Shown one piece after another: positions 36,276 to 43,150 of a stretch of DNA of 64,000 nucleotides. Origin of the DNA: a virus. Position 1 is the first letter of the stretch. Each line of letters begins with the position of its first letter. The stretch lies in IMG/VR virus record IMGVR_UViG_3300035670_010555, positions 96,001 through 160,000 of that record; one strand, written 5' to 3'. Made by a program: the position numbers and the translations under genes. The notes under the pieces were generated by a model that searched no databases, was not told the DNA's origin, and saw only the letters and a list, made by a program, of their open reading frames with translations.

Positions 36276-36320
36276 AAAAACCCACCTTATGGTGGGTTAT
36301 TTTTTTTGGTTAAGTTGAGA

Positions 36321-37877: not shown

Positions 37878-38294
37878 TTACTTGTTCAACAACCAAGATG
37901 ACGATTGAATTTTATCTCCTAGTCCATCAATTAATTTAACCCCTAACCAATCACAAATCGGTGTCTCAGGGATGCTATTATTGTTTTGGTCTCCACCATT
38001 AGCGAATAGGAATTCGTCGTCCCTATCCCCCAAAGAATGAATCAATTCGATTGTCTTACACACAGTTCGATCTGTGTCAACTGAAAGAAATACTCTGTCA
38101 ACCATTTTCAGATTTTGGATGATTAACATTCTCTCATTCTCATCTTGGAATTCTTTACTACCCTTCAACTCCCTCTGTTTGTCATTGTTGACAATGACAT
38201 AGAGTTTGTCACCATGTTCTTTGGACTTATTGAAATATTCAATATGTCCCTTATGAACAGGATTAAAATATCCGCTTACAATTACAATTTTCAT
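37878..38294 (-). CDS. HxGH cytidylyl/adenylyltransferase-family protein
   Basis: SGYFNPVHKGH and ANGGD...SSS motifs. Confidence 0.8.
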   Translation of the reverse strand: MKIVIVSGYFNPVHKGHIEYFNKSKEHGDKLYVIVNNDKQRELKGSKEFQDENERMLIIQNLKMVDRVFLSVDTDRTVCKTIELIHSLGDRDDEFLFANGGDQNNNSIPETPICDWLGVKLIDGLGDKIQSSSWLLNK

Positions 38295-39925: not shown

Positions 39926-40005
39926 GTAGTCAGGACAGGATTCGAACCTGTGATAGACGCTCCTTAGAGTCCGCTATCATGGCAACCAATTCCGCCACCT
40001 GACTA
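39926..40005 (-). ncRNA. tRNA-like scaffold (E2, shortest of E1-E8)
   Basis: Identical 26-nt T-arm/acceptor block; interior is a single tgatag...ctatca hairpin. Confidence 0.7.
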
Positions 40006-40112: not shown

Positions 40113-40234
40113 GTAGTCAGGACAGGATTCGAACCTGTACGAAGAGTATGTGTGTCTCTTCTCCTATGGGTTTACCTCAAGGGTTTCCACCTGCCATCGC
40201 ACGTTGTAGCGTCTACCATTCCGCCACCTGACTA
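40113..40234 (-). ncRNA. tRNA-Leu-like scaffold with unique insert (E3)
   Basis: Conserved ends; unrelated interior. Confidence 0.75.
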
Positions 40235-40447: not shown

Positions 40448-40588
40448 GTAGTCAGGACAGGATTCGAACCTGTATGCACTATTAAGGTAATGCTTTTGTA
40501 TGTTTTTCAGTGTCCACTACAAGTTTCCTTAATTTTGTAGTAACTACTTTCATCCTCACATAACGTCTACCATTCCGCCACCTGACTA
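40448..40588 (-). ncRNA. tRNA-Leu-like scaffold with unique insert (E4)
   Basis: Conserved ends; interior has an actacaa/ttgtagt stem. Confidence 0.75.
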
Positions 40589-42451: not shown

Positions 42452-42634
42452 TGTAATACCGTTTCTCTGGTTTTTACTTATGGTTTGTTCCCCATAACCT
42501 GTTGACGTGCACATCAGAGCAAGGACCTGTACAGTGTCTATCGAGCCGTTCCTCACCTTCCAATTATGGTTGCGACCCATTCGGAAGTCGATAGTCCTTT
42601 CAGTGAAGCATTATCACCTTCTGTAGATATTACA
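42452..42634 (-). ncRNA. Unidentified multi-stem structured RNA (about 183 nt)
   Basis: Nested pairings tgtaata/tattaca, aaggac/gtcctt, ctatcga/tcgatag, cttcc/ggaag, ctctg/cagag and ttatgg/ccataa. Confidence 0.55.
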
Positions 42635-42804: not shown

Positions 42805-42879
42805 TGGAGGGGAGGGAGAATTACGATATCTCGACCTATTCATTAACAGTGAATTGCTCTACCTCTGAGCTACCTCCCC
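42805..42879 (-). tRNA. tRNA-Asn(GTT) with atypical T-loop
   Basis: attca-CTGTTAA-tgaat; T-loop ATCGTAA; U73; encoded CCA. Confidence 0.75.
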
Positions 42880-42905
42880 TTCTGTCTTACAAAGATACTA
42901 CAATA

Positions 42906-42916
42906 TTTCAAAGAAC
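42906..42916 (-). promoter_or_regulatory. boxA-like antitermination element
   Basis: GTTCTTTGAAA directly after the attenuator terminator; identical copy at 43704-43714 after tRNA-Leu. Confidence 0.55.
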
Positions 42917-42929
42917 AAAAACATGTCAT

Positions 42930-42964
42930 AAAAAAACCCCAAACTTTTTTTAAGAGTTCGGGGT
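42930..42964 (-). terminator. Intrinsic terminator of the putative attenuator
   Basis: ACCCCGAACT/AGTTTGGGGT stem followed by a U tract. Confidence 0.8.
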
Positions 42965-43002
42965 CTAAAAATTTAATTTAACTTAAATTAAAAAATTACT
43001 TT

Positions 43003-43092
43003 CTATGACATCCGAACTACAGGGCAAATACCTTCATACCAACATTTCTCTTGTTGACTATTACTGTTAATATGTTGACCTGTAGTTCTCAT
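43003..43092 (-). CDS. Putative attenuator leader peptide MRTTGQHINSNSQQEKCWYEGICPVVRMS
   Basis: Read manually. It lies between a promoter-like TTTG-N19-TACATTAG and the terminator, and its 3' end (AGTTCGG) complements the terminator's 5' arm (CCGAACT). Confidence 0.7.
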   Translation of the reverse strand: MRTTGQHINSNSQQEKCWYEGICPVVRMS

Positions 43093-43109
43093 TGTATTAA
43101 TAATTACTT

Positions 43110-43140
43110 CTAATGTATGAAATATTTTTATTTTGTCAAA
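43110..43140 (-). promoter_or_regulatory. Bacteroidota-type promoter for the leader
   Basis: TTTG(ACA)-N19-TACATTAG, ending 17 nt before the leader ATG. Confidence 0.55.
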
Positions 43141-43150
43141 TGTTTTTTTG

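Follow-up and report, generated by a model that had tools for sequence, protein, structure and literature searches.

A candidate leader-peptide attenuator preceding a block of tRNA genes in a phage with Bacteroidota-type signals

We analyzed a 64,000-nt stretch of DNA from an uncultured giant phage (hereafter, the window), which corresponds to positions 96,001–160,000 of the IMG/VR virus record IMGVR_UViG_3300035670_010555, a 170-kb record with an estimated completeness of approximately 56%. All coordinates below are those of the window. The 17 tRNA genes of the record, identified with ARAGORN and Rfam, were all located in one minus-strand array (46203–36966), and between tRNA-Arg (ending at 43150) and tRNA-Asn (starting at 42879) of this array lies the cassette that is the subject of this report (43140–42890, minus strand), a candidate transcription attenuator. 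Twelve tRNA genes are downstream of the cassette and form the putative controlled unit (42879–36966, minus strand), in the order Asn, Gly, Glu, Lys, His, Cys, Trp, Tyr, Gln, Ser(gct), Gly, and Ile; tRNA-like scaffolds and small open reading frames (ORFs) are interspersed among them. The next strong intrinsic terminator in the terminator scan, a bidirectional hairpin at 36298–36279 (minus strand), likely ends this unit.

Read along the minus strand, the cassette contained every element listed in a first-pass annotation, which a model had made from the sequence alone: a promoter, a 29-codon ORF, an intrinsic terminator, a boxA-like box, and then the tRNA array. The predicted promoter, P1 (43140–43110), is of the Bacteroidota sigma-A type (TTTG followed by TAnnTTTG): a −33 TTTG element at 43140–43137 is separated by a 19-nt spacer from a −7 box at 43117–43110. 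The −7 box matched TAnnTTTG at seven of eight positions (TTAG instead of TTTG in the subclade of the window) and was perfect in most relatives (alignment A1, see below). In one subclade (L252, L307, L308, L321, L350, and L360; A1 columns 1–60), a 9-nt deletion removed the −7 box of P1 and the cassette directly followed the 3′ end of a tRNA gene; here, the upstream tRNA unit is probably the only source of leader transcripts. The leader ORF (43092–43003) consists of 29 codons and a TAG stop codon. Within its codons 2–5 lies segment 1 (43088–43079), a putative anti-antiterminator that forms a perfect 10-bp pairing with 43023–43014 in the minimum free energy (MFE) fold. The codons AGA, ACT, and ACA belong to this RNA segment, which corrects the earlier proposal that AGA and ACA match the upstream Arg and Thr tRNA genes. 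Codons 5–23 (43080–43024), which we regard as the sensing codons, are followed by segment 2 (43023–43012), the 5′ part of which pairs with segment 1, and the 3′ part of which (43018–43012) is a perfect 7-nt complement of 42961–42955 in the 5′ arm of the terminator; a complementarity between the last leader codons and this arm had been noted previously. The terminator (42965–42930) has a 10-bp stem including one G·U pair, formed by segment 3 (42964–42955) and segment 4 (42945–42936), a 9-nt loop (42954–42946), and a T7 tract (42936–42930). The consensus terminator scan skipped it, because the loop limit of that scan was 8 nt. Downstream of the terminator are the boxA-like element (42916–42901), which is identical or nearly identical to a motif of Bacteroidota rRNA (rrn) operons, and, overlapping it, a second promoter consensus, P2 (TTTG-N18-TATCTTTG; 42919–42890), located 10 nt before tRNA-Asn.

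The full leader folded with −53 kcal/mol (z-score −6.4), and the structure consisted of the 1:2 hairpin and the terminator. In folds of the nascent RNA, cut before the 3′ arm of the terminator, the 2:3 helix of 7 bp (+3) formed, and it was complete when a ribosome footprint masked segment 1. Codons 13–20 were the most conserved part of the peptide and end 14 nt before segment 2, a distance that would keep segment 2 accessible when a ribosome stalls there. With segment 1 included, the element has the predicted layout of a classical four-segment attenuator with 1:2, 2:3, and 3:4 pairings.

The amino acid content of the leader corresponded to the tRNA genes that follow it. As the first-pass annotation had stated, codons 5–23 used every amino acid of the 12 downstream tRNAs and no other: 19 of 19 residues belonged to this set, which was covered in full (11 of 11 amino acids). 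On the basis of the proteome composition of this phage, the probability that all residues fall within the set was 5 × 10−6, and 3.5 × 10−8 when full coverage was also demanded. The same property was found in none of 48,083 19-residue windows of long ORFs, and the leader alone possessed it among 18,341 small-ORF windows, so that against the genome background it was unique among approximately 66,000 ORF windows. The match also extended to the codons, which fit the downstream anticodons with the single, previously recognized exception of GGT (Gly) versus TCC.

To place the cassette in a comparative context, we gathered 80 related viral loci via the neighboring methyltransferase gene, and more through pattern scans of viral and metagenome collections (loci are numbered with the prefix L). 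These yielded 63 distinct homologous cassettes from viral and metagenome contigs, 54 of which were aligned (A1). A blastn search of the GenBank phage collection with 1.1 kb around the site returned only generic tRNA matches and no close relative. The cassette was always located inside a tRNA array, and in every terminator-bearing cassette except one, a short ORF beginning with ATG ended 25–54 nt before the terminator. The ATG was conserved, and all 54 aligned ORFs were open into or past segment 2, which bears out the earlier expectation that the leader ORF would be conserved among relatives. Owing to indels (−2, +1, and +3) that separate the core of the ORF from segment 2, the latter occurred in three different reading frames with its nucleotides conserved, which indicates that segment 2 is constrained as RNA and that the frame is constrained to stay open.

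The predicted pairings were supported by co-variation. In the 2:3 helix, 95.5% of the alignment cells were paired, compared with 10–55% when the partner was slid, and four of the seven pairs changed on both sides; one of them was GC in 34 sequences, AU in 13, GU in 7, and unpaired in none. The co-variation score of this helix was reached by 0 of 500 shuffles; whether the antiterminator pairs co-vary was a check suggested in the first-pass annotation. In the terminator, 96.3% of the cells paired and four pairs showed double changes. The 1:2 helix was paired in 79% of the cells across the 54 sequences, and its core 7 bp were nearly invariant. Furthermore, leader types E, F, G, and H had unrelated terminator stems, each with a matching complement at the end of the ORF, and the four types thus represent independent instances of the same wiring.

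When leader content was compared with tRNA content across phages, the two varied together. In 27 complete arrays, the amino acid of a downstream tRNA was present in the leader in 214 cells and missing in 10. Among six clades, the true assignment of leaders to arrays was the best of 720 permutations, by z-score as well as by Jaccard index; co-variation of leader codons with tRNA content among relatives, which the first-pass annotation had suggested testing, was thus observed. In the clade of the window, the leader contained Asn and Gly and their tRNA genes lay downstream, whereas Val, Phe, Met, and the Arg codon CGT were missing from leader and array alike; the clade of L245 and L356 showed the reverse pattern, with the Asn and Gly tRNA genes located upstream of the cassette.

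The same correspondence was seen within single genomes. L356 carried three cassettes. In the first, a leader rich in Asn, Thr, Pro, Gly, and Asp preceded tRNAs Pro, Asn, Asp, Gly, and Thr; in the second, a leader rich in Leu and Arg (TTA five times, CTN three times, and AGA four times) preceded Leu(taa), Arg(tct), and Leu(tag); and in the third, a homologue of the window leader preceded Glu, Val, Phe, Lys, Cys, Trp, Tyr, Met, Gln, Arg(acg), His, and Ser. L228 had two cassettes with the same partition of leaders and tRNAs. The leaders covered the tRNAs of their own segments completely (5/5, 2/2, 12/12, 7/7, 13/13, 7/7, 10/10, 5/5, 8/8, and 9/9), and the combined binomial tests of own versus other segments gave approximately 1 × 10−19, a value obtained from related phages. 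This partition within genomes is the strongest evidence that the leader, as read from its codons, follows the tRNA content. Of the 134 leader codons for Leu, Arg, and Ser, 116 belonged to the codon box of the downstream anticodon, and for Ser alone 40 of 43 leader codons matched, even though AGY accounts for only 24% of Ser codons genome-wide. Meanwhile, the leaders tended to be supersets of the tRNA set, with 104 leader amino-acid cells lacking a downstream tRNA. If arrays are assumed to lose tRNA genes faster than leaders adapt, such superset leaders would be accounted for.

We propose that the cassette is a ribosome-mediated leader-peptide attenuator that controls whether transcription proceeds into the distal block of phage tRNA genes, and we assign this interpretation a probability of roughly 0.75. 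RNA carrying the 29-codon leader would arrive from P1 or from the upstream tRNA genes. In an untranslated leader, segments 1 and 2 would pair and the 3:4 terminator would form; a ribosome running smoothly to the stop codon would cover segment 2, and the terminator would form as well. When a cognate charged tRNA is scarce, the ribosome would stall within codons 5 to approximately 21 and keep segment 1 off segment 2; the free segment 2 would then pair with segment 3, no terminator would form, and RNA polymerase would read on. The read-through RNA would carry the boxA-like element, which would probably render the polymerase termination-resistant over the 6.6-kb, largely untranslated array, and transcripts starting at P2 would lack boxA. 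Since the leader consists of exactly the amino acids that the downstream tRNAs carry, and mostly of the codons that they read, the circuit would constitute a feedback loop, in which a shortage of any listed tRNA raises tRNA synthesis and sufficiency shuts it off. The data fit feedback on tRNA supply, whatever the cause of the shortage. The core of this proposal had already been put forward in the first-pass annotation, and it is supported by the open frame, the co-variation of the 2:3 helix, the independent pairs of terminator and segment 2, and the composition that tracks the tRNAs; segment 1 had been missed.

Several observations weigh against this interpretation. The codon-position entropy of the leader ORF (0.49/0.62/0.65) lacked a clear coding signature. 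Being short and closing a 45-nt AT-rich loop, the 2:3 helix has far less thermodynamic stability than the terminator and could prevail only kinetically. In the folding check that had been suggested, with and without a ribosome footprint, the antiterminator was complete with segment 1 masked, as described above, but with a simple 30-nt footprint at codon 14 or 19, segment 1 was free behind the ribosome and still paired with segment 2 in silico; the model then requires steric exclusion or a queue of ribosomes. The −7 box of P1 is imperfect in the subclade of the window, and the leader RNA may therefore derive mainly from the upstream tRNA unit. The Gly codon GGT is neither a Watson–Crick nor a standard wobble match to the anticodon TCC. 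In L005 and L014, a leader identical or nearly identical to that of the window preceded an array without Asn, Gly, Lys, and His tRNA genes, and single mismatches occurred in L007 and L012, the leader of L007 lacking Trp before a Trp tRNA gene. The statistics were counted per sequence, and because relatives share ancestry, their independence is overstated. Lastly, P2 is located between the terminator and the first tRNA gene, and part, perhaps most, of the tRNA transcription may bypass the switch; in the window, P2 could give unregulated basal transcription.

The last of these points had been raised as a caveat in the first-pass annotation, and it was only partly sustained. P2 is an exact match to TTTG-N18-TAnnTTTG, of which the window contains 13 matches versus 3.8 expected, and it was conserved in all homologues of this cassette (A1). 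In several other cassettes, however, only 11–19 nt without a promoter separated the terminator from the first tRNA gene, and in those cassettes read-through is the sole route to the tRNA genes. Furthermore, the conserved spacer of P2 is a 17-mer that was present in at least 120 genome stretches, mostly from Bacteroidota (loci L366–L445). In three rrn contigs (L369, L372, and L412), it was located between the spacer tRNA-Ala gene and the 23S rRNA gene. The rrn contigs with the 17-mer were from Pedobacter, Flavihumibacter, and Deminuibacter, and the motif was also found in Mucilaginibacter, Chitinophaga, and others. The boxA-like box of the first-pass annotation could thus be identified as a host-type rrn spacer motif, the copy in the window differing from the scanned 17-mer only at the last base. 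The placement between tRNA-Ala and 23S rRNA is that of a classical boxA. After the attenuators of L228 (second cassette), L300, L201, and L013, the motif occurred without a following −7 box. These findings suggest that the phages have captured an rrn-type antitermination signal, and the boxA-like motif together with the promoters suggests a Bacteroidota host. The cassettes without a promoter and the rrn-type identity of the boxA-like element weaken the objection based on P2, but do not remove it. A literature search for the boxA-like sequence returned primer matches only. In one Algoriphagus contig (L375), the 17-mer was located between two tRNA genes.

Among the other explanations considered, the one that survives best is that the element is a real attenuator sensing amino-acid starvation or general translation capacity, the match to the tRNA genes being a shared codon preference only. 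A leader attenuator cannot separate low tRNA abundance from low charging, the leaders usually exceed the tRNA set by the superset cells counted above, and a preference for AT-rich codons is to be expected of the tRNAs as well as the ORFs of phages. Codon preference cannot, however, produce an exact partition of amino acids among the leaders of one genome, nor does it account for Asn and Gly appearing in the leader only where their tRNA genes lie downstream rather than upstream, or for the rare amino acids Cys, Trp, and His always being sampled. We therefore consider this explanation unlikely.

Alternatively, the cassette may be an insulated micro-gene, in which P1 drives a small functional peptide, the terminator ends the unit, and P2 drives the tRNA genes independently, without any regulation. 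The perfect P2 that follows the terminator in all homologues of this cassette agrees with such an arrangement, as do the conserved core of the peptide, which includes two Cys residues, and the fact that a promoter after a terminator is a common layout. In addition, the tRNA blocks of some relatives follow plain gene ends, such as the ORF before Leu-Arg-Leu in L204 and L225, where the segment-2 complementarity is only 3. This explanation nevertheless leaves three findings without a cause: the conservation of segment 2 nucleotides across three reading frames, their co-variation with the 5′ arm of the terminator, including wholly different pairs, and the tracking of downstream tRNAs by leader composition within and between phages. 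The other cassettes, which have no promoter after the terminator, do not fit it either, and its probability appears low.

It is also conceivable that the ORF is incidental and that the cassette, equipped with a promoter and a terminator of its own, encodes a non-coding structured RNA such as a small RNA or a processing element. The strong fold points in this direction, and so do the structured RNAs in the neighborhood (the tRNA-like scaffolds and the freshwater-1 motif described below) and an outer helix that suggests processing. This 8-bp helix (43011–42923, minus strand) pairs 43011–43004, over the stop codon, with 42930–42923, encloses the terminator, and is possible on read-through RNA only; it was paired in 89% of the cells in the subclade having it, and the L009 subclade showed a single compensatory change. 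The helix could serve in processing or add a second layer to the switch. Rfam, on the other hand, gave no match at E ≤ 1, the ATG and the open frame persisted in 54 of 54 sequences despite frame-shifting indels, and the codon-box matching to downstream anticodons would be meaningless in a non-coding RNA, all of which makes this explanation highly improbable. The chance that the composition match is a coincidence picked after inspection, as the choice of a 19-codon stretch after looking, the GGT–TCC mismatch, and the smaller tRNA sets behind the near-identical leaders of L005 and L014 might suggest, is negligible, because codons 5–23, which had been described as chosen after inspection, are exactly the stretch between RNA segments 1 and 2, boundaries defined independently of composition, because the property has P ~4 × 10−8 and is unique in the genome, and because it recurs in non-homologous leaders.

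The attenuator proposed here resembles known systems in part. The multivalent leader attenuators of enterobacteria control operons such as ilvGMEDA (Ile/Leu/Val) and thr (Thr/Ile), and related leaders include trpL, hisL, leuL, and pheL. Like the ilvGMEDA and thr type, the phage element has a short, here predicted, translated leader, mutually exclusive 1:2, 2:3, and 3:4 pairings, an intrinsic terminator, and several amino acids per leader, with the regulatory codons approximately 12–17 nt upstream of segment 2. Unlike this type, it would control tRNA genes (tRNA-Asn first, and then 11 more) rather than biosynthetic enzymes or synthetases, and its leader samples 11 amino acids, mostly once or twice each, rather than runs of one to three. 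It also differs in belonging to a phage of a Bacteroidota-type host, in having a boxA-like element after the terminator, and in having no Rfam leader match: the covariance models searched (His_leader, Thr_leader, the Leu and Phe leaders, Trp_leader, and T-box) gave no match in 42880–43150 at E ≤ 1. The pheST attenuator and T-box riboswitches control aminoacyl-tRNA synthetase genes according to tRNA charging; the former responds to a single amino acid, and the latter work without an ORF, through direct binding of uncharged tRNA. In these systems, as in the proposed phage circuit, the state of a cognate tRNA serves as input and a part of the translation apparatus as output, but the output of the phage element would be the tRNA itself, and it has no specifier or T-box motif (no Rfam match). 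Antitermination at the boxA of rrn operons depends on NusB and NusE. The phage 17-mer corresponds to the Bacteroidota motif located between the spacer tRNA-Ala and 23S rRNA genes, whereas the phage copy, a putative boxA, directly follows a putatively regulated terminator and overlaps a promoter consensus in the window.

tRNA genes are generally thought to be controlled at their promoters, by growth rate and the stringent response, and not by attenuation. To our knowledge, the control of phage tRNA gene expression is essentially unexplored, and a literature search on attenuation or leader peptides in connection with phage tRNAs or tRNA genes found no published account of such control. Phage tRNAs have been linked to counter-defense against tRNA-cleaving immunity: three reports deal with the choice of tRNAs that phages carry and with the means of escaping cleavage (PMC10264068, PMC11555353, and PMC12409363). 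Like the phages of those reports, the phage studied here has a large tRNA set that could replace depleted host tRNAs. This link to anticodon nucleases is a plausible background and not evidence, and host anticodon nucleases as the trigger of the switch would be pure conjecture.

Other features of the putative controlled unit and of the scanned collections are as follows. Approximately nine tRNA-like units were found at 42460–39100 (minus strand); they share a common acceptor stem, D-arm, and T-arm, and 60–250 nt of unrelated sequence replaces the anticodon and variable region. Rfam gave weak tRNA calls for three of them (39927–40004, 40114–40233, and 40449–40587), and their common 26-mer at the end of the T-arm and acceptor stem was present in at least 120 viral contigs. 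The sequence at 42533–42472 (minus strand), within the block downstream of the attenuator, matched the Rfam freshwater-1 RNA motif (RF02979) with 70 bits versus a gathering score of 72 (E-value 8 × 10−15); it immediately adjoins the 5′ side of one tRNA-like unit. A 138-amino acid ORF at 38294–37878 (minus strand), among the tRNA genes of the same block, has an N-terminal HxGH motif of the nucleotidyltransferase type. No other attenuator was found in the window, and upstream of tRNA-Met there was only a TAnnTTTG promoter. In the related loci, plain gene ends before tRNA genes (such as the ORFs at L204:787 and L356:7403) were not counted as attenuators, their complementarity to the terminator arm being 3–5 nt and their composition unmatched. 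The anchor pattern of P2 also caught unrelated DNA, which was set aside: promoters not accompanied by a cassette (L236), ordinary genes, and a CRISPR-like array (L258, L261, and L334). The latter three metagenome contigs contained arrays of up to 27 copies with a 75–76-nt period and variable spacers, and the repeat of approximately 47 nt contained the promoter/boxA-like pattern. These arrays resemble CRISPR loci in which every repeat contains a promoter-like sequence, and they have no relation to the attenuator.

If the attenuator operates as proposed, it would be the first feedback loop in which the speed of decoding directly sets the synthesis of tRNA, and it would extend a textbook mechanism to a new class of targets, to phages, and to Bacteroidota-type hosts. 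The window contributes a single mid-array cassette, the link to a host-type boxA, and a large comparative set with controls at the level of clades and within genomes. The tRNAs that a phage treats as limiting could then be predicted from sequence alone, the element would offer synthetic biology a compact sensor with multiple inputs, and the connection between phage tRNA arrays and host immunity that targets tRNAs would become testable. On balance, and by a slight margin, we favor the broader view that giant Bacteroidota phages may run their tRNA arrays as modular, self-tuning units, in which each block would be protected by boxA and transcribed at a high rate only while its own codons are read slowly. 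One mini-ORF per block would thereby balance a dozen tRNA species, and the circuit would re-arm translation after host cleavage of any of the tRNAs that the leader samples.

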